26,397 nt of DNA from Anaerolineales bacterium UBA6128 (GCA_002423325.1 DIVQ01000020.1:1888-28284); one strand, 5' to 3'. Counted from the first letter of the stretch, positions 2,956 to 16,848 are shown. Notes: generated by a model not told the origin, from the letters alone. A program made the numbers and translations.

Positions 2956-4229
2956 CTATTCCTCATCCAGCAGGCGTCGCTCGCCCTGCAGGCTGCGCAG
3001 ATGCGTCAGGTCCTGCGTCGTCTCTATGACGCCACGGTACTTGCCGTCCGGCGAACGCACCGCCGCATAGTGGATGTAGACAAAGCGCCCGCCCATCTGG
3101 ATCCAGAATTCGGCCGAGTCGCGTGTGCCCTGACGCAACTCCTCGATCAGCTTGTTGACCACGTGCACGCTGGCCGGCGGATGGCAGTTCTGAACCTTGC
3201 GGCCAATGATCTGTGGCGTGCGCGCAAAGACGCGCTCCGCGCCCTGCGAGTAGTAGCGCACCGTGTCGTTCTCGTCGACGAAAGTAACGTCCACTGGCAG
3301 CCGCGCCAGCAGCAAGTTGACCTGCTCGGCCGTCAACACGCCGGTATCCAGGTTGAGCGCGCCCGTGGGCGCCGCACCGGTGGGCGCCGCGCCCGTGGGC
3401 GCCGCACCGGTGGGCGCCGCGCCCGTGGGCGCCGCACCGGTGGGCGCCCCGTAGGCAGACGCAGGCAGGGCGGCCGCCTCTACGCCCTGCGGCTGCCACT
3501 GGTCGCCCGGCTGCACCAGGCAGTAGCCAAACTCGTCGCTTTGCTGGCGGATGGCCAGCCATTCGGCATCACTCAGCACCTTGAGCGCGGTGGGGAACAG
3601 GATGTGCTCCTGCTTGTAGATCAGTCCTTCGATGGCGGCAGCCAGCGGCTCCAGCGCCGCGCGGATGGCTGCGGCATCGCCCGCGCCCACCGCTGCGTGC
3701 AGCGTCTTCAGGTGGGACGGATGTCATCCTGGATGCCCCACATCACCGTCGATGGCCCGCTCACGCCGTGGCGCTCCAGCACGGGGAACAGCAGGTTCTC
3801 CAGGCGGTCGTAGGCGCGCGTGACCTCGCTCAGTTGCCGGGTGTGGGTGCGCGTGCGCGCCAGGGCCTCGGGCGCGGGCAACTGCGCCACTACCTCCTTG
3901 AGCAGCTTGAGCACCTCGGCGGCCGCAAAGTTCTCATACTTCCAAGTGTGCACGGGGTGGCCGGGGGTCATCTCGGGGCTGGTCTGCCCGTCGAGCGACT
4001 CCCGAAAGACCGACACGTGCACGTCGCACAGCGCCTGCACGTCCTCGGCGGGCAAGCCTTCGCTGATCAGTTCCTGCTCGATGCGCGCGATTTCAACCGC
4101 GCTGACGTCACCCACCAGCGTCCGAAAACGGCCTTTGACCTCCTCGACGTCACCCCCACTGTGCAGGTCGAGGATCATGGACTTGACCGCCTGTTTGCGT
4201 TTCTCGCTATTGTTGATATGCTCGCTCAT
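2956..4229 (-). pseudogene. DUF438 domain protein with C-terminal PAS-like domain, interrupted by a 1-nt frameshift near 3708-3726 (N-part 4229..3708, C-part 3726..2956)
   Basis: The N-part reads MSEHINNSEKRK...GPSTVMWGIQDDIRPT*, which is the DUF438 N-terminal pattern. The C-part continues in another frame as ...HPSHLKTLHAAVGAGDAAAIRAALEP... through a PAS-like C-terminus (VDVTFVDENDTVRYYSQGAERVF...). The two frames overlap over 3708-3726 and differ by 1 nt. RBS GAAGGGAG lies before ATG 4229. Confidence 0.6.
3359..3448. repeat. perfect 30-bp x3 tandem repeat (unit gcgcccgtgggcgccgcaccggtgggcgcc), in-frame inside the DUF438/PAS gene, encoding (APTGA)6
   Basis: Read directly from the sequence: units at 3359-3388, 3389-3418 and 3419-3448. 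The minus-strand translation is APTGAAPTGAAPTGAAPTGAAPTGAAPTGA. Confidence 0.9.
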
Positions 4230-4551: not shown

Positions 4552-5820
4552 TCAGGCGGTTGGCTCAGCCTCTCGCTGCTCGAGAATCGGCGTCACGATG
4601 CCCTGCGGGACCCCCGTCGTAAAGTTGGCCAACCCGGCGGCATAGCTGATCGCGCGCGGCTCGCCCTCCACCTCGATCACGATGACCGTGTCGATCGGGT
4701 TAAGCACCTTGGCTGGCAGGTTCTTCAGGAACAGACGGTCGCCGTTCTGCTCAAAGGCCACGTCGTCGCCCGTCTCCAGCATGTGCACCGACTGGACGCG
4801 GTTGGCGAAGCGGCTGAAGGTCGCCTCGCGGCCTGGCCAGCGTTCCGTATGCGCATAGACACTGCTGCCCTTGACCGTGAACGGTCCCCACATCGAGCCC
4901 AGTTCGGGCGCGCGTGTGGTGCCATACACCGAGGCGCCGTTCTTCTCCAGCCACGCCCCCACCTGGCGCAGAATCTTGACAGAGGCCGTGGGCACGGTCC
5001 CGTCGGCCTTGGGGCCGATATTGAGTAAAAAGTTGCCGCCGCGCACGCTGCACTGCACCAGCGTCTTGACCACACGCCAGGGGCTCTTCCAGGCAACATC
5101 TCGTGCGCTATAGCCCCAGTTCTCGTTGAGCGTCATGCACGCCTCCCAGGCGCGGCCCTCGCCCTCGGGCTTGATCTCCTGCTCGGGCGTGCCGAAATCC
5201 TCCGGCGTCTGGCTGCGGTTGTTGATCAGGATGCCCGGCTGCAAGTCGCGCGCCATGGCATTCAACGCCTCAGCGCGCCAGTCCTCGGCCGACCCCGGCC
5301 AACCGCCGTCGTACCACAGGATGTCGATCTTGCCATAGTCGGTGCAGAGTTCGCGCACCTGCGCGTGCACATAGTCCGCCATGGCCTTCCAGCCCTCGGG
5401 GTCCTTGGCCGCGCCGGTAAAGCTGGCGGGATAGCGCCAATCGAGCAGCGAGTAGTACAGGCCGACGGGCATGCCTCCGCGGTGACAGGCCTCTACATAC
5501 TCGCGCACCAGATCGCGCTTGGGGCCGAGTTTGGTGGCCGTGAACTCGGACACTTGGCTATCCCACAACGAAAAGCCATCGTGATGTCGGGTCGTGAGCA
5601 CCATGTATTTCATCCCGGCTGATTTGGCCAGGGCCACCCATTCATCCGGGTCGTAGCGCTTGGCGGTGAACTTGTCCGCGTAGGGCGCGTACTCGTCGTG
5701 CGGGATGTGCTCCTGGTACATCACCCACTCGCCGCGCGCCAGCACCGCATAGACGCCCCAATGGATGAACATCCCGAAGCGTGCCTGCTTCCACCACTGC
5801 AACCGATCGACGCAATCCAT
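4552..5820 (-). CDS. alpha-L-fucosidase, glycoside hydrolase family 29 (422 aa)
   Basis: The N-terminal WWKQARFGMFIHWGVYAV, HHDGFSLWDS and a GH29-like catalytic core. ATG at 5820-5818; TGA at 4554-4552. Confidence 0.85.
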   Translation of the reverse strand: MDCVDRLQWWKQARFGMFIHWGVYAVLARGEWVMYQEHIPHDEYAPYADKFTAKRYDPDEWVALAKSAGMKYMVLTTRHHDGFSLWDSQVSEFTATKLGPKRDLVREYVEACHRGGMPVGLYYSLLDWRYPASFTGAAKDPEGWKAMADYVHAQVRELCTDYGKIDILWYDGGWPGSAEDWRAEALNAMARDLQPGILINNRSQTPEDFGTPEQEIKPEGEGRAWEACMTLNENWGYSARDVAWKSPWRVVKTLVQCSVRGGNFLLNIGPKADGTVPTASVKILRQVGAWLEKNGASVYGTTRAPELGSMWGPFTVKGSSVYAHTERWPGREATFSRFANRVQSVHMLETGDDVAFEQNGDRLFLKNLPAKVLNPIDTVIVIEVEGEPRAISYAAGLANFTTGVPQGIVTPILEQREAEPTA

Positions 5821-5910
5821 GTCCCTGCCCCCCCCTTCGTATCACGTCTACCCAGCTATGCTAGCGCGGAACGGGAGGCTGTCAACCACGCCTCCGCGGC
5901 ACCGCTGGGC

Positions 5911-5938
5911 TTGACGCCTGGGTGCCCGCCTCTACAAT
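5911..5938 (+). promoter_or_regulatory. sigma70-like promoter for zupT: TTGACG (5911-5916), 16 nt, TACAAT (5933-5938)
   Basis: Near-consensus hexamers with a 16-nt spacer, about 60 nt upstream of zupT ATG 6000. Confidence 0.45.
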
Positions 5939-5999
5939 ACCACGCAGCGATCGCGACGCGCGCCCGGTTGGGCGTGACCGCGCGTCCACAGGAGGTCTC

Positions 6000-6794
6000 A
6001 TGCTCACCTGGCTTGCCAGCCTGCCCCCCGTGGTTCAGGCGCTGTGCGCCACCCTGTTCACCTGGTTCGTTACCGCGATGGGCGCCCTCCCCGTCTTGTT
6101 CACCAAGACGGTCAGTGACAAGCTGCTCGACACCATGCTCGGCCTGGCCGCCGGCGTGATGATCGCCGCCAGTTTCTGGTCGCTACTGGCGCCCGCCATC
6201 GCGATGTCGAACGGCTCGTGGGCACCCGCGGCCGTCGGCTTTCTGCTGGGAGGCGTGGTGCTGCGCATCATAGACGTGCTGCTGCCGCACCTGCACCCAG
6301 CCGGTGCGGAGGTGGAGGGCCTGCACACCTCCTGGCGCCGCACCACGTTGCTTGTGCTGGCCGTCACGCTGCACAACATCCCCGAAGGCCTGGCCGTAGG
6401 CGTGGCCTTCGGCGCTGCGGCCAGCGGCATTCCCGGCGCCGACCTGGCCGGCGCCATCGCGTTGGCCATCGGCATCGGCCTGCAGAACTTTCCCGAGGGC
6501 ATGGCCGTGGCCATGCCGCTGCGCGGCGAGGGACTGTCGCGCCGCAAAGCCTTCATGTGGGGGCAGTTTTCGGGCATGGTGGAGCCAATCGCCGGCGTCC
6601 TGGGTGCCTGGGCCGTGCTCACGATGCGCTCGCTGCTACCCTACGCGCTGGCCTTTGCGGCGGGCGCCATGATCTTTGTAGTCGTGGAAGAGCTCATCCC
6701 CGAGGCGCAGAGCAAGGGCAACTCGCACCTGGCGACCGCCGGCGCGATGCTCGGCTTTGCAGTCATGATGATCCTGGACGTCGCCCTGGGCTGA
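6000..6794 (+). CDS. zupT: ZIP-family zinc transporter ZupT (264 aa from [10 protein letters not shown])
   Basis: AGGAGG RBS at 5990-5995. Eight predicted TM helices; [10 protein letters not shown] and [10 protein letters not shown] are ZIP signatures. The upstream part of track ORF 5922-6794 is unlikely to be translated. Confidence 0.85.
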
Positions 6795-6820
6795 TCCAGA
6801 CGTCCCACGGGAGGTGCGGA

Positions 6821-8968
6821 ATGGCCACGCCGAAACCAGAGCTGCTCACCAACGCGCACCTGTCGCTCGCGTTCGAGCCGACCACGGGCGCGCTGCTCAG
6901 CATCCGCAACGCCCACTCCGGCGGCGAAATGCTGCGCGCTCGCAGCGCCCAACGCGGGCCGTTCGCCATCTACCACCGGTTCCACAGCCCCTACGCCGAA
7001 CTCGGCCCCGATACCTCTGCGCACCGCGCCCACACGGAGCCGGCCGACATCGCCGGCGCCGTCTTCAGCCCCGCGACGGCTCTCCCGGCGCGCTTCGCGC
7101 GCACTGCCACGCCCGACGGCGAGACGCTCAGCGTCACCTACTCAGACGCCAACGGGCAATGGCGCGCCCAGCTGACCGTGGCGCTCCCGCGCGACCAGTC
7201 CACCAGCCGATGGGGGCTACGGCTCACCAACCTGGGCACCGAACCGGCCGACTATCTGGGCGTGTTCCCGCTGTTGCCCGGTGTCCGCCTGGGAAACAGA
7301 CGCCGCAACCGGATGATGGTCGCCAACAACGCCGGCTACATCACGCCATTATGGGCGACTCGCGGCGGCGTCTATGGCGATGCAGCGCAGGTCGGCATGC
7401 AGTGGGGCTGCGTCTTTGATGACGATCCCGCCGGCGCGCACGATGCCCTCGCGTTCATCGTGCGCGACCCCGATCTCCGACGCAAGGCGATTCTGTACCA
7501 GCGCCCCGACATCGCTGTGCGCTACTATCCGCCACGCACGCTGCAGCCGGGCAAGAGCGTGACATTCCCCGATGTCGACCTGCTGGTCTACACGGGTGAC
7601 TGGAAGCCGGCCGCGCAGGCTTACCGCGCCTGGTTCGAGCCAGCCTTCCCGCAACGCCCGCTGCCCGGCTGGGTGCGCAACCTCACCAACTGGCGCGGGC
7701 GCTGGTTCTGGCGGCGCGGCCAGGAAATCCCGCCCGAGTACACCGTCGCCGAGACCGTGGCCGACCACCTGACGAGTTTTCGAGAGCTCCCCGACGTCTG
7801 CCGTGGCGGACCGGGAACGCTGTACGAGTACGCGTTCTGGGGGCACGGCTGCATGGGCAGGGAACGCTGCGGCCGCACCCAGGTGCACACCGACGGTGAT
7901 TATGTCATCCGCGAGGACCTGGGCGGAGCCGAGGCCTTGCGTGACGGCATCGCCGCGCTGCATGCGCGCGGCGAACGCTTTCTCTTTTACGTGGAGGCCT
8001 ACCTCTGCCCCAAAGAGAGCGACCTCGTCCGCCACGGCCCCGGCCTGGAGTGGCAGGTGATGCACGCCGACGGCGGCACCGCCGGCCCCTACGACAGCGA
8101 GGGCAAGTGGGTGCACATGTGCCCCGGTGCAGCGGGTTGGCAGGACCACCTGGCAGAATCGTGCGCGCGCCTGCTGCGCGAGACTGGCGCCGATGGCGTA
8201 CGCTTGGATTCGCTCGGCTTTTACGGCTTTCCGTGCTACAACCCGGCGCACCAGCACGCAAACCCGTGGGACTATAACGCGTGGGTGATGACGCTGCTGG
8301 ACAAGGTGGCGCGCGCCACGCGCGCCGTCAACCCCGACGCGTACCTGATGACCGAGGCCGGCCCCGACTTTTTCTCGCATCACTTTGATGGCGCCCTGGC
8401 CTCGCCCTCGGGCCCCGGGCGCATCGCCGTCAGCCGCGATGTGGCCCCCATGCGGATCGCCGTGCCCGGCTACGCGCTGGCGGTCTACAGCGCCGCGGGA
8501 CCGGTGGCGGCGTCGCTCATGGGCTACCCGGGCGGCTGCGGCGGCCGCAACTTGGACGCGCGCTTCTACGAGCTCGACCGGCTCTGGCGCACGGCATCGG
8601 CGCCGGTCTATCCGATCGTGCGCTGGGGCGATGCCGCGCACGACAACCCCACAGCCAGCCGCGCGGACGTGGCCCTGCGGCGCTTCTCCCAGGGCGAGGT
8701 GGACGTAGTGGTGGGCGCGCGCCCGCGCTATCTGGACGACTACCCGCACGATCCGCCCCCCAACGATTGGCTGCGCAACACCAACGTGGCGCTCAAGCGC
8801 AACCGCGTGACCATCGAGGTGCGCGTGCGCCACGCAGGCTGCGCAACGCGGCGCGTAGAGCTGTGTGACGTGCTTCGCCAGCGAACGCGCATAGTGCCCT
8901 TCCGGGTCGAGGGGGATGAGGTGGTGGTCGAGGTGGACGCGAACTGGTTCTGGCTGCGGCTGGCCTAG
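6821..8968 (+). CDS. hypothetical 715-aa protein, possibly a glycoside-hydrolase-like TIM-barrel enzyme (GH-H/amylase-like motif GADGVRLDSLGF)
   Basis: GGGAGGTG RBS at 6808-6815, ATG 6821 (MATPKPELL). The track ORF 6218-8968 shares this frame but its upstream part overlaps zupT and is rejected. The GVRLDSLG (region-II-like Asp) and LMTEAGPD motifs suggest a glycosidase; the function is not assigned. Confidence 0.65.
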   Translation: MATPKPELLTNAHLSLAFEPTTGALLSIRNAHSGGEMLRARSAQRGPFAIYHRFHSPYAELGPDTSAHRAHTEPADIAGAVFSPATALPARFARTATPDGETLSVTYSDANGQWRAQLTVALPRDQSTSRWGLRLTNLGTEPADYLGVFPLLPGVRLGNRRRNRMMVANNAGYITPLWATRGGVYGDAAQVGMQWGCVFDDDPAGAHDALAFIVRDPDLRRKAILYQRPDIAVRYYPPRTLQPGKSVTFPDVDLLVYTGDWKPAAQAYRAWFEPAFPQRPLPGWVRNLTNWRGRWFWRRGQEIPPEYTVAETVADHLTSFRELPDVCRGGPGTLYEYAFWGHGCMGRERCGRTQVHTDGDYVIREDLGGAEALRDGIAALHARGERFLFYVEAYLCPKESDLVRHGPGLEWQVMHADGGTAGPYDSEGKWVHMCPGAAGWQDHLAESCARLLRETGADGVRLDSLGFYGFPCYNPAHQHANPWDYNAWVMTLLDKVARATRAVNPDAYLMTEAGPDFFSHHFDGALASPSGPGRIAVSRDVAPMRIAVPGYALAVYSAAGPVAASLMGYPGGCGGRNLDARFYELDRLWRTASAPVYPIVRWGDAAHDNPTASRADVALRRFSQGEVDVVVGARPRYLDDYPHDPPPNDWLRNTNVALKRNRVTIEVRVRHAGCATRRVELCDVLRQRTRIVPFRVEGDEVVVEVDANWFWLRLA

Positions 8969-9011
8969 CCTGGGCCTTGTGGGCGTCGGTCGCGGTTCAT
9001 GTTGCCGCGTA

Positions 9012-9033
9012 GGGGCGGCTCGCGAGCCGCCCC
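9012..9033. other. perfect 22-bp palindrome GGGGCGGCTCG|CGAGCCGCCCC (11-bp stem) with no U-tract
   Basis: Read directly; it lies 44 nt after the 715-aa gene stop and just before the first zupT-3' remnant. It may be a terminator hairpin or a recombination site. Confidence 0.4.
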
Positions 9034-9047
9034 CCTACAACCCCAGG

Positions 9048-9108
9048 CATGCTGTACCTTAGCCTGGGCTTTGCCATCATGATGATCGTCGACGTCGCCC
9101 TCGGGTGA
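9048..9108 (+). pseudogene. degenerate remnant of the zupT 3' end (..LSLGFAIMMIVDVALG*)
   Basis: Compare with zupT 6744-6794 (..[15 protein letters not shown]). Same orientation, and ends with TGA at 9106-9108. Confidence 0.55.
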
Positions 9109-9140
9109 GCATACTGTTCAAAGCCCGCTTGTGCCACCCG

Positions 9141-9158
9141 CTGCAACAAGAGTTGCAG
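9141..9158. promoter_or_regulatory. inverted repeat CTGCAAC-aaga-GTTGCAG flanked by direct repeats GCCCGCTTG (9123-9131, 9159-9167), upstream of the acquired membrane-protein gene
   Basis: Read directly; it is 45 nt upstream of ATG 9203 and is a possible operator. Confidence 0.3.
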
Positions 9159-9202
9159 CCCGCTTGCAAGTGCATGCCCAAGCGGCCGCCAAAGGAGCGC
9201 GC

Positions 9203-10798
9203 ATGTTGAGGCGAGACCGTGTTACCGTCGGAGTGCTGGCGACGCTGGGCGTGTGTGCCTGTACCTTGCACCTGTATGGTACGCGCCAAGGCATCGGCCT
9301 CAACGCCGACGCGCTGATTCACCTCGAAGCAGCCAGCAATCTCGTCAAGGGCAATGGCCTCGTCCATGGCCCAGCCGCTCGGCCTCTGACGCACTTCCCG
9401 CCGCTGTATCCAACTATCCTGGCCTTCGTGGGCGTCATGCTGAGCGTGGAACTTCAACAAGCCGCCCGTCTGCTCAATGCTGTGCTTTGGGGAGCGAACA
9501 CCTTTTTGGTGGGCTCTATCATCTACCGCCTCAGCTGCCAAAGTATGTGGCTCGCGGTGCTAGGCGCTGCACTAACGCTGTCATCACCCGCCCTGCTCCA
9601 AGTCCATTCGGCAGCGCTCTCAGAGCCCCTGTTTATCTTGACCGCGTTTCTAGGTCTATACATGCTAACACTCTATGCCACGCGTAGGCCCCCCCGGCTT
9701 CTACAGATCGCCGCTCTCATAACCAGTCTGGCTCTGCTGACTCGCTACATAGGAGGCGTGCTTGTCTTTACTGGCAGCCTATGGCTGCTAGCGGCACGAG
9801 GCCGTTCATTTGGCAGGCGTCTCGCGGATGGTCTCCAGTTCGGGCTGATCGCTAGCCTACCACTGGCAGCGTATACCCTCTACACATCACGGATCACGGG
9901 AAGCATAGCGAACAGAAGCCTGCTCTGGCATCCGATCACCATGGGCCATGTGCGTCAGGCACTCGGCACGCTATCGGTGTATGCGTTGCCGGCGGCCACG
10001 CCCTCATTCACTCGGGGGTTGGCGGTGCTGGGCATGATGGCCGCCTTGGGCCTCTGCATCGCGATGCTGCGTGAACACGCCCCCTCCGAGGGCAATCTGC
10101 TCTCCCGATCAGCGTGCCGACGCGACCTGATGTTATTCGGCTCCTTTGCCATCTGGTACATGCTCGGCTTGCTTGTCTCGATTTCTACCTTTGACGCGAA
10201 TACGCCCCTTTCGAGCCGCATCCTGATACCGATCCTGGTTGCGTTCCTCGTCTTTGCCCTTGGAGGCGTCGGCCTACTGACGCACGCGCACAACCGGACG
10301 GTGCGCATCCTGGGCTTGCTTCCTTTTATGGTGTTGACTGCGCTCTATGCGACTGCTTACTGGCCCAGAGTGCAGGACATGCATCTCAACGGGCAGCGTT
10401 ACTCTGGCGCGCGCTACGAATCCTCGGCGCTGGTGCAGGCCATCCGCGAGCTCTCTGCAAACACGCCGCTGCTCACGAACAATTCGACCGTTCTTTATCT
10501 GATGACGGGACATGAATCCTCCCAGCTGCCCTGGAAGTACAAACCCACCACACTTGAGCCCAATGCCAACTACCGTAAATGGGTGGAGCGTGCGGTCGAG
10601 CAATTGCGACGCCAGGGCGGCCTGATCGTGTATCTCACGGTGGATCCCACACCGCGCTGGCAAGTGAAGCTAAGCGAACTGCGCGAAATCGCCTCAATGG
10701 AAGTCATCCTCAGCACAGACGAGGGTGTGCTATTGCGGCCGCTGCCTCCGGATGCGGGCCGCGCGGGCAGCGAGACGCCGGTCAGATCCTTACCCTGA
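9203..10798 (+). CDS. polytopic membrane protein (531 aa), GT-C-fold (ArnT/PMT-like) glycosyltransferase-like: N-terminal 10-12 TM helices plus a soluble C-terminal domain
   Basis: AAGGAG RBS at 9192-9197, ATG 9203. GC is lower and codons are atypical (cta, tta, ata, ttt) relative to its neighbours. A GT-C assignment is by topology only. Confidence 0.65.
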   Translation: MLRRDRVTVGVLATLGVCACTLHLYGTRQGIGLNADALIHLEAASNLVKGNGLVHGPAARPLTHFPPLYPTILAFVGVMLSVELQQAARLLNAVLWGANTFLVGSIIYRLSCQSMWLAVLGAALTLSSPALLQVHSAALSEPLFILTAFLGLYMLTLYATRRPPRLLQIAALITSLALLTRYIGGVLVFTGSLWLLAARGRSFGRRLADGLQFGLIASLPLAAYTLYTSRITGSIANRSLLWHPITMGHVRQALGTLSVYALPAATPSFTRGLAVLGMMAALGLCIAMLREHAPSEGNLLSRSACRRDLMLFGSFAIWYMLGLLVSISTFDANTPLSSRILIPILVAFLVFALGGVGLLTHAHNRTVRILGLLPFMVLTALYATAYWPRVQDMHLNGQRYSGARYESSALVQAIRELSANTPLLTNNSTVLYLMTGHESSQLPWKYKPTTLEPNANYRKWVERAVEQLRRQGGLIVYLTVDPTPRWQVKLSELREIASMEVILSTDEGVLLRPLPPDAGRAGSETPVRSLP

Positions 10799-10820
10799 CA
10801 TGCCGCGGCGCAGGCGCGCG

Positions 10821-11012
10821 GGGCACCCGGGCTGTCCTGACGATGCGCGCGCTGCTGCCCTGCGCGCTGGCCTTTGCGGCGGGCGCCATGATCTTTGCAG
10901 TGGTAGAGGATCTGATTCCCGAGGCGCAGAGCAAAGGCAACTCGCACCTGTCCAGCGCTGGCGCGATGCTGGCTTTGCGATCGTGATGATCCTGGGCGTG
11001 GCCCTGGGGTGA
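10821..11012 (+). pseudogene. approx. 190-bp degenerate copy of the zupT 3' end (last ~63 codons), with a 1-nt deletion causing a frameshift
   Basis: It reads ..[47 protein letters not shown], then shifts frame to ..FAIVMILGVALG*. This is about 85% nt identical to zupT 6611-6794. A lone A of zupT (6750) is missing after 10978. Confidence 0.65.
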
Positions 11013-11020
11013 GGCGCGGC

Positions 11021-12001
11021 TCATACCTGGGCCGAGCTAGCCGCCTCCACGCCCTGCTCCAGCAGCGCCAGCAACGCCTCGGCCGTCTGGGCCTCCATCA
11101 GCCGGGGACGCAGGGCATTGGCGCCCTCCAGCGTCGCCACGTACTTGACGACGAACTTGCGAAACAGCATCAGTCCCTGCGTGTCGCCATAGTAGTCCTG
11201 CATGGCCGCCAGGTGACGCCGAATCAGCGCCAGCCGCTCCGACCAGGGCACGTCCCCCAGGTCGCGCCGCGCCAGGATCCAGGGATTGCCCACCGCACCA
11301 CGCCCGATGAGCACGGCCGCGCAGCCGGTCTGCGCCTTGATGGCCTCGATGTCCGCTACCGTGCGCACATCCCCGTTGGCCAGCACGGGCACGCTCACAC
11401 GTGCGACCACCTCGCCAATGGCCCGCCAATCGGCCACGCCGCTGTAGCCCTGCTCCTTGGTGCGGCCGTGCACCGAGATGGCGGCCGCGCCGCTCTCCTC
11501 AAGGATGTGCGCCACCTCCAGATAGTTGCGCGTGGTGTCGTCCCATCCCAAGCGAATCTTGCAGGTTACCGGCACCGGCAGCACGGCCACCAGGCGACGG
11601 ACGAACTCGCCCAGTTGCAGCGGGTCCTGCAGCAGCGCCGCGCCGCGTCCGCGGTAGAACACGCGCCGCGCGGGACAGCCGGCGTTGAGGTCCATGATAT
11701 CGGGCCGCAGCGCCATCAGCGCCTCTGCGGCCGCTACAAGAGTATCGGCTTGCCTGCCCAGCAACTGCAGCGCGATGGGACGCTCTTCCGAAGCGAACTC
11801 GACCAGCCCAGACGTGCGCCGCGGGTTACGCAGCACGCCCTCATCGAGCACGCAGGGCAGAAAACTGAACGCCGAGCCCATCTCGCCGCACAGGGTACGA
11901 AACGGCAGATCCCCGTAGCTGGCCATGGGCGCCAGGATCAGGTCGCCGTAGATTGGCACCTTGCCGATGTGCAATTGTGGGAGCCGACGCGGGTCAGACA
12001 T
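11021..12001 (-). CDS. dus: tRNA-dihydrouridine synthase (Dus family)
   Basis: DLNAGCP motif, a TIM-barrel FMN fold and a HGRT segment. GGAG RBS before ATG 12001-11999 (the track starts 2 codons earlier, at GTG 12007). Confidence 0.85.
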   Translation of the reverse strand: MSDPRRLPQLHIGKVPIYGDLILAPMASYGDLPFRTLCGEMGSAFSFLPCVLDEGVLRNPRRTSGLVEFASEERPIALQLLGRQADTLVAAAEALMALRPDIMDLNAGCPARRVFYRGRGAALLQDPLQLGEFVRRLVAVLPVPVTCKIRLGWDDTTRNYLEVAHILEESGAAAISVHGRTKEQGYSGVADWRAIGEVVARVSVPVLANGDVRTVADIEAIKAQTGCAAVLIGRGAVGNPWILARRDLGDVPWSERLALIRRHLAAMQDYYGDTQGLMLFRKFVVKYVATLEGANALRPRLMEAQTAEALLALLEQGVEAASSAQV

Positions 12002-12035
12002 GCTCACTCCATTCCAAAACCCCAGTGTAACACAG

Positions 12036-12061
12036 CGGACGCCCCGATGCCGGGGCGTCCG
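12036..12061 (-). terminator. hairpin CGGACGCCCCG-atgc-CGGGGCGTCCG downstream of the flotillin gene, with a weak U-tract
   Basis: 11-bp perfect stem 25 nt after the flotillin stop; a GTTTT on the minus strand follows only after 16 nt. Confidence 0.4.
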
Positions 12062-12085
12062 CCACTCTCAGGTCCAGCTGCCGTC

Positions 12086-13552
12086 CTACGGCTTGGGCGC
12101 CTCGTCCGTCTTGGCCTCGGCGGGCTTAGCTTGCTCAGGCAACGGCTGCTCGGCGTCGGCCTTTTGCATCTTGCCCAGATAATCGGGCAGTTCGAGCCCC
12201 GCGATGCGCGCCACCTCGTGCATGGGAGGCAGAACGCCCACCAGCTTTTGCCCGAGGTTGCTCAGACCGCCCTCCCCCGAACCGCTGTCCCAGACCACAA
12301 CCTTGTCCAGCGGGAGGTTCTGGATGGCCTTGGCCTGCACGTTGGCCACGTCCACCAGGCGCTCGATCACCAGGAACGACGATGCCTGCGACGCACCGCC
12401 CGCCGCCTGGGTGAGCTGCTGATAGCCAGCGGCCTTGGCGGCCAACACGGCCTGCGTGCCCTGGGCCTCGGCCTGCATGCGCAGCAACACGGATTCTGCT
12501 TCGCCCTTAGCGATGCGCACCCGTCGTTCGCGCTCGGCCTCGGCGGCGATGACCACACTCTCCTTGTTGGCGTCGGCGGGCACAACAATCTCGGCCTGCA
12601 AACGCGCCTGCTCGCGCTGGGCGCGAGCACGCTCAGCCTCCGCCTGCGCCATTTCCTCGGCCACGCGGATGGCGCCATCTGCCCTGCGGGCAGCCTCCTG
12701 GCCCTTCTGGCGCGCGGTCTCTTCGGCGACCTTCATCTGCGCCTCGTACGCTGCCTTCTTGGCCTGGTTCTCGGTCTCCAGCTGTACGGCCTCGGCGTCA
12801 TAGGTCGAGGTCACTTTGCGGCGATCGCGCTCGGCCTCTTTCTCGCCGATCATTGCCAGCGCGTCCGCCGCGGCCACCGACGTGCGGCGGTCGCGTTCGC
12901 GCTCGGCGACGCCTGTCTGCCCCAGCTTTTCCTGCTCGGCGACGTCGATGAGCGCCTGGTTGACCGCTTCGGCGGCGGCCTTTTTGCCCAGCGCCACGAT
13001 ATAGCCGCTCTCATCCTGAATGTCGCGGATGTTCACGTTGATCGCCGTGACGCCGATCTTTTCGAGCTCGGTGGACACCGCCTCGTTCACCTTGCCCATG
13101 AAGGCCTGGCGGTCGCGGTTGATCTCCTCGATACCCATGGTGGCGATCACCGCACGCATCTGGCCCAGGATGATGTCCTGCGCCTGATCACGGATCTGCA
13201 CTTGTGACAACCCCAGCAGACGCACGGCCGCGTTTTCCATCAGCCCGGGATCGGTCGAGATGGCCGCCGTCACCGTCGTGGGCACAGAGACGCGGATGTT
13301 CTCGTTCGACAGCGCGTTGGTCAACTCGATCGGCACCACGAAGGGCTCCAGGTCCAGGTAGGCATAGTCCTGCAGCACCGGCCATACGAACGCTGCGCCG
13401 CCATGAATGGTGCGCGCCGCGCCCTTGCCGGTCTTGCCGTAGATCACCAGAATCTTGTTGGACGGGCAGCGTTTGTAACGTCCCACCAGGGTCAGGAACA
13501 GTGCAATCACGATCAACGCCAGAATAAAGGCGAGGATCACTCCAGGGGGCAT
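12086..13552 (-). CDS. flotillin-family SPFH/band-7 protein (YqiK/FloT-like, 488 aa)
   Basis: N-terminal TM helix, an SPFH domain, and a long Ala/Glu-rich coiled coil (EAQ/AEA repeats). AAGGAG RBS before ATG 13552. Confidence 0.85.
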   Translation of the reverse strand: MPPGVILAFILALIVIALFLTLVGRYKRCPSNKILVIYGKTGKGAARTIHGGAAFVWPVLQDYAYLDLEPFVVPIELTNALSNENIRVSVPTTVTAAISTDPGLMENAAVRLLGLSQVQIRDQAQDIILGQMRAVIATMGIEEINRDRQAFMGKVNEAVSTELEKIGVTAINVNIRDIQDESGYIVALGKKAAAEAVNQALIDVAEQEKLGQTGVAERERDRRTSVAAADALAMIGEKEAERDRRKVTSTYDAEAVQLETENQAKKAAYEAQMKVAEETARQKGQEAARRADGAIRVAEEMAQAEAERARAQREQARLQAEIVVPADANKESVVIAAEAERERRVRIAKGEAESVLLRMQAEAQGTQAVLAAKAAGYQQLTQAAGGASQASSFLVIERLVDVANVQAKAIQNLPLDKVVVWDSGSGEGGLSNLGQKLVGVLPPMHEVARIAGLELPDYLGKMQKADAEQPLPEQAKPAEAKTDEAPKP

Positions 13553-13571
13553 CGTTTTCTCCTTTCGTCGA

Positions 13572-14198
13572 CTAGGACTCGGACTCTTCGACCTCGATCG
13601 TTACACTGTCCACCAGTGCAACGACGCGCACGGAAGTTCCCGCCGGCAGACGCTCACCCGTTCGTGAGCGCGCCTTGACGAACTTGATGGTGTTGCCCAC
13701 CAGCACGCGCACCTGCCCAACGCCATTCTCGGGGATATCCAGGTAGACCTGACCCGAACGACCTACTGCGGTATTGAGCTTGGCGGTGCCCTCTTCGGTC
13801 AAGCGCGGCAGGAACCAGAAGAAGAGCGCAACGACCAGCAATCCGGCAACACCCCACAGCACTGCTCGCAGTACAGCCCACCACTGCGCGCCATCCTGCT
13901 GCAGGTACAGCGCCCCCGCCCAACTGAACAGCGTGCCAAACGCGAGCAGCGAGCGTATCGACAGCAAGCGGAAAGTGGCCAGCCCGGCAGCCTCCTGCGC
14001 GTCCATACCGCCGGCGTCGCCGTCGCCCAGGTCCAGATCCTCGCCGACCTCGACGCCGCCCTCGGCGTCGACCGCCTCCACACCACCGAGAGCAGCCACT
14101 GATGACACGAGCTGCCAGATGAACAGCGTGCTGAAGAACACCGCCGCCACAAAGAATCCCTGGCTCAGGCTCGAGAGTGAGCTCCACCAAGTCAACAT
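13572..14198 (-). CDS. NfeD-family (YqiJ/YuaF-like) membrane protein, partner of flotillin
   Basis: AGGAGGG RBS before ATG 14198 (MLTWWSS...). TM helices, an acidic G/D-rich loop and a C-terminal OB-fold-like region (VRVLVGNTIKFVKARS). Its stop lies 20 nt upstream of the flotillin start. Confidence 0.75.
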   Translation of the reverse strand: MLTWWSSLSSLSQGFFVAAVFFSTLFIWQLVSSVAALGGVEAVDAEGGVEVGEDLDLGDGDAGGMDAQEAAGLATFRLLSIRSLLAFGTLFSWAGALYLQQDGAQWWAVLRAVLWGVAGLLVVALFFWFLPRLTEEGTAKLNTAVGRSGQVYLDIPENGVGQVRVLVGNTIKFVKARSRTGERLPAGTSVRVVALVDSVTIEVEESES

Positions 14199-14332
14199 CG
14201 GTTCCCTCCTCGCTCCACTCAAGAGGCCTTGACTCTGCCTTGCGCCCAACACATCCACGGGGCGTACGCCCGACACACAGTATAGCCGGCGGGCACGTTC
14301 GGGTCAACCGCTCGCGTCACCGCCAGCGGGCG

Positions 14333-14848
14333 TTACTCCTTGCGATCGCTGCGCATCCCGCGCACCTCATCCAGGATGCCCTGCAGGATATCGGGTACAT
14401 CCTCATGCCCCAGCGGCTGGCTTGGCACGCTGCTCTCGGCGGCAGGCCGCTGGCGATGCACCTGCGCCATAATGAGCTCGCGGACCTGCTGATAGTTGGC
14501 CAGCCCTGTAAGCGTCGACTCGGCCGCAGTCTGCTGGCTGAACCCGGCGGTATGCACCTGCAGCGTGCCGATGCCAAACAGCCGATCGAAGGGGCCGCGC
14601 TTGAGCGCGACGTTGGTCACCATACGATAGGGCACCACATCCTCACTGCGGGTCAGAATCCCGCGTCGCACCACCACCTCATCGTCTCGCAATTCGTAGC
14701 TGATCGAGCGACAGTAAGGCAGAATGAGCGCGCAGGCGATGATGATCCAGACAGCGTTCGCGGCGAGAAAGATGGCGACATAGGTCCAGCCTGCCCCGGG
14801 GACCAGGCCCAGGAACGCATACGGGAGAAAGCCGAACACGAACACCAT
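14333..14848 (-). CDS. bacterial PH-domain (bPH_2/DUF304, YdbS-like) membrane protein
   Basis: Two N-terminal TM helices followed by a PH-like domain. First gene of the putative PH-NfeD-flotillin operon. The alternative GTG start at 14854 is 2 codons upstream. Confidence 0.7.
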   Translation of the reverse strand: MVFVFGFLPYAFLGLVPGAGWTYVAIFLAANAVWIIIACALILPYCRSISYELRDDEVVVRRGILTRSEDVVPYRMVTNVALKRGPFDRLFGIGTLQVHTAGFSQQTAAESTLTGLANYQQVRELIMAQVHRQRPAAESSVPSQPLGHEDVPDILQGILDEVRGMRSDRKE

Positions 14849-15041
14849 CGCCACCCAGATAGTGTACTTGGTCGCGAGTTTGGGGCTGGGTTTGAAGACG
14901 CGATCAGTCGTCGTGCACCTCCTTACGGCGCGTCACGAACACAGACGCTCCCATGCCAGATTACCATGCCGCTGCGCTGCCGGCAAGCGGCGGTGCCAGA
15001 GGGGAACAGCCATCGTCCGCAAGCCCGCCTGCAAAAGCGCC

Positions 15042-16142
15042 TCAAGCAGTCGTCGAAACTTCCTGTCCGGGGTGCGCACGGGCCATCCGTACACAGTTGC
15101 CGCCGTCCAGCTTGGCTCTGTACATCGCGCGGTCGGCCGACTCAATCAGTCGCTCCGTGTCGGGGTCACTGCCCGGCTGCCACACGGCCACGCCCACGCT
15201 CACCGTGACGCTCAGCTTGCTGCCGGCAACGGGAAACGCCGCCGCCCCCAATGCATCACAGATGCGCTCAGACAGCGCGCGCGCCTGTGTTGCCGAGGTC
15301 CCCGGAGCCAGGATGGCGAACTCATCGCCTCCATAGCGCGCCACCGCGTCCGCACGCCGCACATGCTCAAGCAGGAATTCGCCGATCTGCCGCAGCAACT
15401 CGTCGCCTGCAAGGTGCCCGAGGGTGTCGTTCACGACCTTGAGCCCGCCCTCGTGGTCAACGTCCAGCATGATCAGCGCCAGGTGCTGCTCGTAGCTCAG
15501 CGCGCGGCTGATCTCTACCGTCAGCAGGTCATCCAGGTGTCCGCGATTGTAGAGCCCTGTCACGCCGTCGCGCACAGCCAAATCGGTGGCGCGCGTGAAA
15601 AGGCGCGCGTTGTTCAGCGCCACCCCCGCGGCCCGAGCCAGGGATTCGAGCGCGTCGAAAGCCTGTCGGCCGGCTGCCACCCTGCTACCGCAGGCCAGCA
15701 GCGCCGCGCCGATCCTCAGCTCTGGCGTCTCGAGCCGCACGGTGCGCACGACGGTTCGGTCGGACGAGCACCCGGCCGCGGCCGGCGCGGCGGTCAGATC
15801 GACCACGTGGATACTCTCCTGCGAGGGGCGATCGCGGGGATCGAGAGCATCGAGCAGCCGCGCGATCATCGCCGCGCACTCTGGCGCGCTGACATTTCGA
15901 TCCGCCCCGCAGAACAGGCTCGGCCCGTCGGGGCTGAATGGCGCGAGCAGCAGCAGCCCGGCCATGCCGCAGCCCGGCAGACTCAGCGCCGTCCGAATCA
16001 GGACGCGCGCGATGTCATCGGAACTGTGCCCCGCCGCGAGAGCGTCGGCCACAAGCCCGAGGTGCTGCAGGCGCGCATCGCCGTCAGCCGACAACCACGC
16101 GCGGTCATCGTCGCTCGGTGCCGGCGCCCGCTTACCCGCCAT
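15042..16142 (-). CDS. diguanylate cyclase, with an N-terminal GAF-like sensor and a GGDEF domain (366 aa)
   Basis: GLYNRGHL, LDVDHEGGLKVVNDTLGHLAGD and RYGGDEF (intact GG[D/E]EF) with RxxD-like context. The N-terminal ~190 aa are assigned as GAF-like by position only. Confidence 0.8.
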   Translation of the reverse strand: MAGKRAPAPSDDDRAWLSADGDARLQHLGLVADALAAGHSSDDIARVLIRTALSLPGCGMAGLLLLAPFSPDGPSLFCGADRNVSAPECAAMIARLLDALDPRDRPSQESIHVVDLTAAPAAAGCSSDRTVVRTVRLETPELRIGAALLACGSRVAAGRQAFDALESLARAAGVALNNARLFTRATDLAVRDGVTGLYNRGHLDDLLTVEISRALSYEQHLALIMLDVDHEGGLKVVNDTLGHLAGDELLRQIGEFLLEHVRRADAVARYGGDEFAILAPGTSATQARALSERICDALGAAAFPVAGSKLSVTVSVGVAVWQPGSDPDTERLIESADRAMYRAKLDGGNCVRMARAHPGQEVSTTA

Positions 16143-16167
16143 CCATCTGCCTCGTGTCCACGGCGCG

Positions 16168-16848
16168 TCAGCGCGTCAGCACTCGGACGCCCTCAGCACC
16201 GGCTACGATCACGACGTTCGCGATGCCAAGAAACAGGCCCGTGCTGACCACGCCCGGGATGGCATGCAGCACGCATTCCAGTTCGCGCGGCAAAGCAATG
16301 CCCTCCGTCCAGCGGCAATCGATGATGCAGTGCCCCTCATCCGTGGCAAAGGGCCTGTCACCCTCCATACGCGGCGCGGTCTCAGCCCCCGTGCGCGCAA
16401 TCGCCGCCTCAGTGCTGCGCCAGCCAAAGCGCACCACCTCGACCGGCAACCAGGAGCGCTTGCCCAGTCGTGTCACCAGCTTGGTCTCGTCGACGACGAT
16501 GATCTCCTGACGGCTGGCCGCGGCGACAATCTTTTCACGCAGCAGGAAGCCGTGCCGCCCCTTGATCAGATCGAGTCGTGGGTCCACTTCGTCGGCCCCG
16601 TCGATCGTCACGTCGATACGCGGGTGCGCATCCAGCGTCGTCAGCGGGATGCTTTCGGCGCGCGCCAGCGCCTCCGTCTCGTTGGACGTGGCGACCGCCA
16701 CGAGGTCGCCAAGCGTGCCCTGCCTCAGTCGCGCGGCAATCTGCAACGTAGCGTGGCGCGCCGTGGTGCCACTGCCGAGACCCACGACCATCCCGCTCTG
16801 CACCCACTCTACCGCCCGGAGTGCAGCGGCTCGCTTCAGTTCTTCCAA
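16168..16848 (-). CDS. rpiA: ribose-5-phosphate isomerase A, probable TTG start
   Basis: GLGSGTT, DGADEVD and KGRHGFLLREKI motifs. There is no in-frame ATG/GTG between the upstream stop and MEELKRAAAL; the TTG at 16848-16846 is the first start. Confidence 0.8.
   Translation of the reverse strand: MEELKRAAALRAVEWVQSGMVVGLGSGTTARHATLQIAARLRQGTLGDLVAVATSNETEALARAESIPLTTLDAHPRIDVTIDGADEVDPRLDLIKGRHGFLLREKIVAAASRQEIIVVDETKLVTRLGKRSWLPVEVVRFGWRSTEAAIARTGAETAPRMEGDRPFATDEGHCIIDCRWTEGIALPRELECVLHAIPGVVSTGLFLGIANVVIVAGAEGVRVLTR

Follow-up and report, generated by a model that had tools for sequence, protein, structure and literature searches.

The 26.4-kb window analyzed here (the whole stretch of 26,397 nucleotides from Anaerolineales bacterium UBA6128, GCA_002423325.1, DIVQ01000020.1:1888-28284) contains an intact gene for a ZIP-family metal transporter, followed by two 5′-truncated copies of its own 3′ end. 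Each copy is preceded by another gene, the first a DUF6259/GH66-like putative glycoside hydrolase gene (DUF6259) and the second a PMT/ArnT-like membrane protein gene (the PMT-like gene), and the series ends at a convergent gene for a DusB-like tRNA-dihydrouridine synthase (Dus). The interval between ZIP and Dus holds inserted DNA, and the ZIP copy beside Dus is a neutrally decaying pseudogene. On balance, we think that the ZIP-Dus spacer is a hotspot of gene gain and loss, and that the fragments are ZIP ends displaced by homology-anchored insertion that needed no recombinase. A preliminary description of this DNA had seen a footprint of serial insertion at the ZIP 3′ end and read the repeats as attL/attR sites of integrative elements. 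Insertion stands; the attL/attR reading is unsupported because we found no recombinase, transposase or tRNA, no core common to the three copies and no remnant of the ZIP 5′ part. The window was also read as the right-hand part of the 41.9-kb metagenome contig ENA ERZ27315036 k141_4139, and its organism is a high-GC, Anaerolineae-like member of the Chloroflexota.

The 3′ end of the ZIP gene is present in three copies

All three copies lie where the preliminary description had placed them, in one orientation, and each closes in TGA (Table 1). The complete gene starts with the ATG at 6000, which has a ribosome-binding site (RBS; aggagg) ahead of it. It had been called zupT; its membership of the ZIP family holds, but its protein scores 147 bits against the NCBIfam ZupT model, below the equivalog cut-off of 252 bits. 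The longer copy, fragment 3, pairs 6590-6794 with 10809-11012 over 204 nt (first estimated at about 190 bp) at ~85% identity. A single 1-nt deletion, which corresponds to ZIP position 6752 and lies between 10970 and 10971, shifts its frame. The local alignment score is 248, compared with 22 ± 2.8 for shuffled sequences. The shorter copy, fragment 2, pairs 6750-6794 with 9064-9108 (38/45 nt, or 84%; 39/45 to the ZIP gene of the closest relative, L085) and encodes LGFAIMMIVDVALG followed by the stop. Its score of 55 is far above chance (shuffles 21 ± 2.6, maximum 33), so the similarity first noticed at 9048-9108 is significant, although only 9064-9108 is ZIP; positions 9048-9063 correspond to the spacer of related genomes.

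When the ZIP 3′ end was compared with the whole window by BLAST, these were the two matches (E=3e-61 and 4.5e-9), and the next best was a 22-nt chance match at E=1e-3. Neither blastn nor tblastn detected another copy or remnant of the ZIP 5′ two-thirds in the window. The fragments begin at different points of the gene, at ZIP -204 for fragment 3 and -45 for fragment 2, and the longest block present in all three copies is 8 nt. A longer exact block of 35 nt (6644-6678 = 10863-10897) is common to ZIP and fragment 3; this is the core-identity block of that pair, which the preliminary description had proposed to define by a formal alignment, and fragment 2 does not contain it. The overall pattern is one of orphan ends, in which an intact ZIP gene is followed by co-oriented, 5′-truncated 3′ ends interleaved with other genes. 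Fragment 3 begins ~10 nt past the stop of the PMT-like gene and ends 8 nt short of the Dus stop.

From position 8142 rightwards an assembly chimera is ruled out, and fragments 2 and 3 with their junctions are real, because two assemblies under other accessions match the window at 100% identity: JGI 3300002498 over 8142-16798 and Logan SRR5323160 over 8166-10892. The intact ZIP gene and the ZIP-DUF6259 junction are covered by the ENA contig alone. The Logan contig terminates within the 35-nt block common to fragment 3 and ZIP, where an assembly graph built on short k-mers would be expected to break. On the left, the JGI and Logan assemblies both start inside DUF6259, no more than 25 nt apart (window 8142-8166). 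These near-coincident breaks suggest that the sampled populations are heterogeneous in strain upstream of this point, perhaps with alternative haplotypes. Separately, an in-frame ATG ahead of fragment 2 opens a 19-codon open reading frame (ORF) at 9049-9108 with the product MLYLSLGFAIMMIVDVALG; no convincing RBS precedes it and it is probably fortuitous.

Related genomes carry empty and intermediate haplotypes

Relatives were found by homolog searches with Dus and DUF6259 followed by look-ups of genomic context, which gave four loci designated L082 to L085. In L083 and L084 (Dus 80% identical in amino acids) the order is GGDEF, bPH_2, a hypothetical gene, Band7, Dus, ZIP, fucosidase, His_Phos and PFK, with a single ZIP gene that converges on Dus across a gap of 163 nt. 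This is the empty site that the preliminary description had proposed to look for, and it bears out its claim of inserted DNA in the window. In L085 (Dus 87%), the ZIP 3′ end is followed by a 336-nt spacer and then Dus, on a contig of just 1.6 kb that carries only the last ~220 nt of ZIP. An intermediate arrangement is found in L082 (Dus 79%, DUF6259 78%), where ZIP, 28 nt, DUF6259, 48 nt and Dus follow each other, and both the PMT-like gene and any ZIP fragment are absent from the interval. At the empty sites, the DNA past the ZIP stop consists of a 35-nt segment s1, then a palindrome H (GTAGGGGGCGGCTCGCGAGCCGCCCCCTAC) and then a repeat-rich spacer. The haplotypes can therefore be written as ZIP-s1-H-s2-Dus for L083/L084 and L085, and ZIP-DUF6259-48 nt-Dus for L082.

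The flanking genes give the tree ((window,L085),(L082,L083)): nucleotide identity of Dus is 85% between the window and L085, that of Dus and Band7 is 92-94% between L082 and L083, and values across the two pairs are 79-84%. Dus itself is intact and is the conserved right-hand anchor of the variable interval, with an equivalent stop position in L085; its protein matches the DusB model TIGR00737 at 2e-83 with 280 bits, slightly under the 293-bit cut-off.

Beyond these loci, the closest ZIP genes among species-representative genomes are those of Chloroflexota and Anaerolineae metagenome-assembled genomes (MAGs), at 74-81% identity. Among 80 GTDB loci of ZIP relatives, none has this neighborhood and none has extra ZIP 3′ fragments, and a metagenome scan with Dus gave a best identity of 65%. 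The contexts of more distant Dus and DUF6259 homologs show no conserved ZIP adjacency, so the ancestral state cannot be polarized from them. Two unrelated genomes, of a Chloroflexota MAG (L014, 9152-9937) and of Halanaerobium saccharolyticum (L022, 7923-8714), carry a second, distant ZIP paralog (29-34% identity) a short way upstream of the ZIP ortholog. These tandem pairs are genuine, but they are ancient paralogs and not fragments.

Fragment 3 is a decaying pseudogene and forms a mosaic with ZIP

Over the 204 nt of fragment 3, identity among the four functional ZIP tails is 88-96%, and fragment 3 is 81-85% identical to the functional tails and 75% identical to the next relative, L002. Since the ZIP pieces as a set are 81-90% identical among themselves and 75-82% identical to L002, we conclude that all of them belong to a genus-level gene pool and that none is a mimic carried by an element. 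Polarized site patterns identify eight derived sites common to fragment 3, the window ZIP and L085 against L082/L083, which places fragment 3 in the window's own ZIP clade; derivation from an unrelated ZIP gene, a possibility raised in the preliminary description, does not fit.

Fragment 3 has 17 private substitutions by a strict count, where all four other sequences are identical, and 19 by a looser one. They fall on codon positions 4/6/7-9 and include L>R, W>R, Y>C and D>G replacements. Changes at codon position 2 make up 6/17 of the private changes in fragment 3 and 0/14 of those in the functional lineages (p=0.02). Fragment 3 is a neutrally decaying pseudogene, because its private changes are spread over the codon positions, include radical replacements and are accompanied by a frameshift. 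The pairwise dN/dS (ratio of nonsynonymous to synonymous divergence) of 0.22 was initially read as divergence under selection. That reading was withdrawn, because one of the two lineages is functional and duplication followed by drift predicts a value of ~0.5.

The divergence between ZIP and fragment 3 is not uniform. The exact 35-nt block lies inside a 62-nt tract (6621-6682) where third-position differences number 1/20, compared with 18/48 outside (Fisher p=0.007). Informative sites unite ZIP and fragment 3 at 4/4 positions inside the tract and 0/5 outside, and the four derived alleles inside are found in no relative. Pairs of functional genes show no such contrast (p=0.35-1.0), so the tract is not merely slow-evolving. 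Outside the tract, the third-position difference between ZIP and fragment 3 is 0.38, whereas species pairs differ by 0.19-0.26; here fragment 3 is nearest to L085 (0.26) and the intact ZIP to L082 (0.19). The heterogeneity is that of a recombination mosaic, and it suggests the 62-nt tract as a candidate crossover or gene-conversion tract.

A second contrast lies within the intact gene. Relative to L082, the synonymous divergence (dS) of ZIP is 0.34 over the last 68 codons and 0.88 over the preceding 96 codons (Fisher p=0.006), and the drop occurs at the codon where fragment 3 begins; the same comparison with L083 gives p=0.11. The drop reflects either recombination or an unexplained synonymous constraint. 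As fragment 3 lies adjacent to Dus and is nearest to L085, the sister of the window by its flanks, it most likely represents the native ZIP tail. With few sites to go on, the data are no more than suggestive of a resident tail in fragment 3 and of a related donor for the tail that ZIP has now.

These data bear on an origin by lineage-specific tandem duplication of ZIP or its 3′ end, followed by deletion and replacement, with the cargo acquired independently between the copies. Such a history would agree with the placement of every fragment in the window's ZIP clade, the joint of spacer to ZIP -45 described below has the topology of the novel joint of a tandem duplication, and duplication followed by drift is not firmly rejected by the pairwise synonymous to nonsynonymous ratio of 18:13 (expected ~0.75, p~0.07, calculated by hand). 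It would also demand several independent and precise deletions, each sparing the neighboring genes. Positions 6795-11020 contain no ZIP 5′ remnant, and relatives carry one ZIP gene and no array. The divergence outside the tract, deeper than between species and with no shared derived site, argues against a recent in-situ duplicate. We therefore consider tandem duplication quite unlikely, and the decayed paralog array offered as an alternative in the preliminary description finds no support in the single ZIP genes of the relatives.

The two cargo genes differ in origin

The cargo is as first described, a 715-aa glycosidase-like gene and a membrane-protein gene of lower GC content, however only the latter looks foreign. 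The PMT-like gene has a GC content of 0.60 and a third-position GC content (GC3) of 0.70, compared with a GC3 of 0.82-0.88 in eight neighbors tested. Its matches to Pfam PMT and PMT_2 (3-5e-4) are below cut-off, and its best homologs among 5.8 billion proteins, some of them annotated as ArnT-like, are 30-35% identical. The gene is absent from L082, L083 and L085. The PMT-like gene is a recent foreign acquisition.

DUF6259 begins 26 nt past the ZIP stop, has its own RBS and shows a native composition (GC3 0.87). L082 carries a 78%-identical ortholog at the same site without any ZIP repeat, and the dS between the two (0.68) approaches that of the flanking genes (0.75-0.96). We conclude from this divergence and from the native composition that DUF6259 is old at the ZIP-Dus locus. 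It occurs in one member of each pair of the flank tree, and both copies end at about residue 710 of homologs that run to ~805 aa, which together imply allelic exchange at the locus. The shared C-terminal truncation was also considered as proof of a single insertion, an argument weakened by ~710-aa members that exist elsewhere (P0162).

The preliminary description had suggested looking for homologous islands elsewhere. The PMT-like homologs, at no more than 35% identity, provide none, and the DUF6259 homolog found elsewhere lies in an unrelated sugar-utilization cluster. That homolog, 57% identical, adjoins a GH95 (fucosidase-family) gene and ABC sugar permeases on an unrelated contig (L095, 8001-12827), and in the window DUF6259 is one gene away from a GH29 alpha-L-fucosidase (6821-8968 and 4552-5820, respectively). 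This context hints that DUF6259 proteins act on fucosylated glycans.

A piece of the ancestral spacer marks the junctions

Window positions 9005-9064 are 87% identical to the sequence that begins 35 nt past the ZIP stop at the empty sites of L083/L084. This piece includes palindrome H (9009-9038) with its perfect 22-nt core (9012-9033), which follows the ZIP end in L085 too. As the core occurs once each in the window, L083, L084 and L085, and always in the ZIP-Dus spacer, H serves as an orthologous landmark. Within the window it lies, together with the first ~30 nt of the spacer that follows it, after DUF6259 and immediately ahead of fragment 2. The H stem is present in the predicted fold, although the fold of 8960-9115 as a whole is unexceptional (z=-1.4). 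Despite its lack of a T tract, H is probably the hairpin of the old bidirectional terminator. It is not a repetitive extragenic palindrome or a miniature inverted-repeat transposable element, being single-copy per locus and confined to the ZIP-Dus spacer, and an integron attC site was rejected because its ends misfit the R′′/R′ consensus on inspection and H is already present at the empty sites. A scan for consensus promoters and terminators gave no signal at the junctions.

Compared by eye, the s1-H spacer is ~93% identical between L083 (reverse complement of 2873-2967) and L085 (reverse complement of 218-290), in contrast to ~80% identity of their coding DNA. Its 22-nt perfect palindrome is conserved in all of them, and s1-H may be under selection as a bidirectional terminator or may encode a small RNA; Rfam has no match for it.

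The repeat-rich spacer has also left traces. A half copy of its repeat, K (TAGCCTGGGCCTTGTGGGCGTCG...), overlaps the DUF6259 stop codon, and L083 and L085 have related copies between ZIP and Dus; the repeat reads TAGCTTGGCCCCC in L083 and TAGCCTGGGCCTTG in the window's own copy at 8966. The 10-mer TAGCCTGGGC of K recurs at 9060-9069, at the left edge of junction J2 (TAGCCTGGGCTTTGC). At J2 the start of a spacer repeat (TAGCYTGGSCC) is fused to ZIP position -45 (ATGCTGGGCTTTGC) with a 6-nt overlap, CTGGGC. From these sequences J2 would be an illegitimate, microhomology-mediated join and not an att core. On the right-hand side, the native spacer, 163-336 nt in relatives, is gone between fragment 3 and Dus, where 8 nt are left.

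The spacer also allows us to weigh a history in which the full arrangement is ancestral and the empty sites of the relatives arose secondarily, by deletion between direct ZIP repeats. Direct repeats do favor RecA-dependent deletion, and the dS of DUF6259 is almost as deep as the clade split, so this gene may be ancient here. A deletion between ZIP repeats cannot, however, recreate the s1-H spacer, which L083 and L085, members of different clades, share directly after ZIP. The PMT-like gene is moreover confined to the window lineage and unameliorated in its GC3. Finally, fragment 3 has 19 private changes in its 204 nt, or 0.093 per site; compared with roughly half of the dS between the window and L085 (0.5-0.6), this suggests, on small counts, that it formed after the split from L085. 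We regard an ancestral origin of the full arrangement as highly improbable.

No mobile-element machinery is found at the locus

In agreement with the preliminary description, Pfam detected no recombinase or transposase family among the window ORFs scanned, and the ZIP-Dus interval contains no tyrosine or serine recombinase, transposase, tRNA or phage-like gene. The search that it had proposed beyond the window was negative as well, as gene calls on the 4 kb upstream include no recombinase or transposase. PHROGs gave no match for either cargo gene. A tRNA scan found none and Rfam, run on 5700-11300 at a permissive threshold, returned no family and no known riboswitch, so there is no RNA-gene integration target. 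A transposon or insertion sequence with a target-site duplication of 2-15 bp was rejected: there is no transposase, terminal inverted repeats bracket neither cargo gene, and the duplications measure 45 and 204 nt.

The remaining candidate of this kind is site-specific integration. One or two small islands would each have recombined at an integrase core within ZIP and brought a replacement ZIP tail, with the integrase since deleted or acting in trans. Several features are as this predicts: direct repeats of a gene 3′ end bracket DNA missing from relatives, the exact 35-nt block sits in a near-identical 62-nt tract with diverged arms, the PMT-like gene is foreign in composition, and private changes are unusually dense in the leftmost 31 nt of fragment 3 (8/31 versus 10/112, p=0.027). 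Against this, the 4.2-kb interval has no recombinase, excisionase, transposase, tRNA or phage-like gene, each supposed island is one ordinary gene, and no homologous cassette was seen elsewhere among the homologs found. The block common to all three copies is at most 8 nt and fragment 2 lacks the 35-nt block, although decay could erase a short core. At its left edge fragment 2 is fused across a microhomology to a spacer repeat of the host, the replacement ZIP tail falls within the allelic diversity of the host group, and DUF6259 is native-like, has diverged along with its flanks and is repeat-free at the same site in L082. Taken together, these observations make a site-specific element unlikely.

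Table 1. Coordinates of the ZIP-Dus locus and its features in the window.
Feature	Coordinates	Strand	Basis
GH29 alpha-L-fucosidase	4552-5820	-	Gene order left of ZIP
Intact ZIP-family metal transporter, 264 aa	6000-6794	+	Pfam Zip 7e-26
ZIP 3′ segment repeated downstream (last 68 codons + stop)	6590-6794	+	Alignment
Central near-identity tract of ZIP and fragment 3	6621-6682 (partner 10840-10901)	+	Third-position and informative sites
Cargo gene 1, DUF6259/GH66-like putative glycoside hydrolase, 715 aa	6821-8968	+	Pfam DUF6259 2e-17, Glyco_hydro_66 2e-7
Spacer repeat K, half copy	8966-8995	+	Direct sequence reading
Ancestral ZIP-Dus spacer piece (palindrome H + next spacer-repeat start)	9005-9064	+	Match to relatives' spacer
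Junction J2	9060-9074	+	Three-way comparison of window, L083 spacer and ZIP genes
ZIP fragment 2 (last 14 codons + TGA)	9064-9108	+	Window-wide BLAST, E=4.5e-9
Cargo gene 2, PMT/ArnT-like polytopic membrane protein, 531 aa	9203-10798	+	Weak Pfam PMT, PMT_2
ZIP fragment 3, pseudogene copy (last 68 codons + TGA)	10809-11012	+	Alignment, E=3e-61
DusB-like tRNA-dihydrouridine synthase, convergent on ZIP	11021-12007	-	Pfam Dus 2.5e-72
Band7/SPFH protein	12086-13552	-	Gene order right of Dus

Elsewhere in the window, a perfect tandem repeat of 30 nt x 3 (alternatively a 15-nt period x 5.6) occupies 3358-3448. It lies within a minus-strand PAS-domain gene at ~2986-3690 and should encode an in-frame 10-aa repeat.

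Discussion

Homology-anchored insertion into the ZIP-Dus spacer is the reading toward which we lean. How the DNA recombined, where it came from and in what order the events fell we infer as follows. DNA from a related genome would carry a ZIP 3′ end with a different gene downstream, and the conserved ZIP 3′ end would serve as the homologous anchor. Entry could be by a Campbell-type single crossover of a circularized fragment carrying the ZIP tail, or by homology-facilitated illegitimate recombination, where one end is homologous and the other is joined at a microhomology. In either case each event would leave ZIP complete, place the cargo after it, and push the resident tail downstream as a 5′-truncated direct repeat.

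A history of four steps can be proposed. The ancestor would have been ZIP-s1-H-s2-Dus. DUF6259 would have entered early, between the ZIP stop and H, and was later exchanged among lineages. The PMT-like gene would have arrived in a related haplotype and displaced the 204-nt tail that was resident there. The DUF6259-bearing and PMT-bearing haplotypes would then have been joined at the CTGGGC of J2, leaving the 45-nt tail that is fragment 2. Consistent with this, a complete left ZIP and a 5′-truncated right copy flank the insert and share a tract, as Campbell-type insertion predicts, and J2 looks like an illegitimate join made across a short, GC-rich microhomology.

A number of points weigh against this reconstruction. 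The donor haplotypes that it calls for, ZIP-PMT-fragment 3-Dus and ZIP-DUF6259-x-H-K..., were not found in the relatives and assemblies searched, which makes the order of events a reconstruction, and an extra deletion must be assumed for the s1-H-s2 spacer missing beside Dus. Reciprocal parental arms are not clearly seen, as the five informative sites outside the tract have a mixed pattern. The drop in ZIP dS is significant against L082 (p=0.006) but not against L083 (p=0.11), and it may reflect no more than slow synonymous evolution of the ZIP 3′ end. In addition, the dS of DUF6259 (0.68) exceeds that of the ZIP 3′ end (0.34), so there is no obvious co-transfer from an L082-like donor. An exact 35-nt core with diverged arms also resembles an integrase att site, and the first entry of the foreign PMT-like gene into any genome is left unexplained.

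A bolder version, to which we give an outside chance, is that the conserved ZIP 3′ end is a recurrent landing pad at which gene cassettes are stacked serially, much as in an integron. The driver could be an unrecognized recombinase acting in trans, with 6644-6678 as its core, or systematic, selected, homology-anchored capture in Anaerolineae. If so, orphaned ZIP tails would allow later RecA-mediated excision and the spread of cassettes as circles.

Homology-anchored insertion without such a system has a more modest reach: it implies no new system, protein family or mechanism, and the scar is of a known and fairly ordinary type. The locus is nonetheless a natural example in which intermediates are kept, since related uncultured Chloroflexota include empty haplotypes as well as haplotypes with one insertion and with two. 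It illustrates how single genes can enter a bacterial chromosome without mobile-element machinery and leave scars that are datable pseudogenes. It also carries a caution, since a gene 3′ end repeated directly on either side of foreign DNA is usually taken for a pair of att sites, whereas the evidence here favors homology-anchored and illegitimate recombination.

Comparison with known systems

The locus resembles integrase-type islands and prophages in that a partial direct duplication of a gene end flanks DNA missing from relatives, with an exact core for one pair of copies. It differs from them in its single ordinary cargo genes, the differing starts of its repeats and a junction formed by microhomology fusion. 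Integrases specific for dusA reportedly target the 5′ end of that gene, but the likeness suggested by the neighboring Dus gene is coincidental; here no integrase is present, the target is the ZIP 3′ end, and Dus is DusB-like and intact. O-antigen and capsule loci exchange variable gene content by homologous recombination in conserved flanks. The ZIP-Dus interval shares with them conserved flanks, here ZIP and Dus, and a content discordant with the phylogeny of those flanks. Unlike it, such loci normally swap cleanly and leave no serial fragments of a flanking gene.

Campbell-type integration is closer. Single crossovers of circles carrying a lacZ-end fragment in E. coli yielded gene-end duplications of 109-950 bp (Amarir-Bouhram et al. 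2011, PMC3240628), with a complete left copy, the insert and a 5′-truncated duplicate of the gene end, and with a shared crossover tract predicted. The 204 nt of fragment 3 are within that range, and the 45 nt of fragment 2 are under it. The experiment used a plasmid with identical homology, whereas here the copies differ by ~15-19% outside the 62-nt tract and no remnant of a replicon or vector is present.

Arrays of Rhs, CdiA and type VI secretion system (T6SS) effector genes offer a further comparison. There, homology-facilitated illegitimate recombination was invoked to explain strings of orphaned 3′ regions (Kirchberger et al. 2017, PMC5361080, citing Jackson et al. 2009 on rhs). In those arrays non-homologous toxin domains make up the displaced ends, and selection acts on the passengers, which are immunity genes. 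At the ZIP-Dus locus, in contrast, the displaced ends share homology with the one retained, the gene is a metal transporter of housekeeping type, and the passengers, a putative glycosidase and a GT-C-like membrane protein, are unrelated and have no apparent stacking logic. The architecture is nevertheless the same: an intact gene is followed by co-oriented, 5′-truncated orphan 3′ ends that have been pushed downstream together with genes of earlier states, and in both cases no integrase is involved, and a conserved part of the gene would serve as the anchor while the other end would be joined illegitimately.

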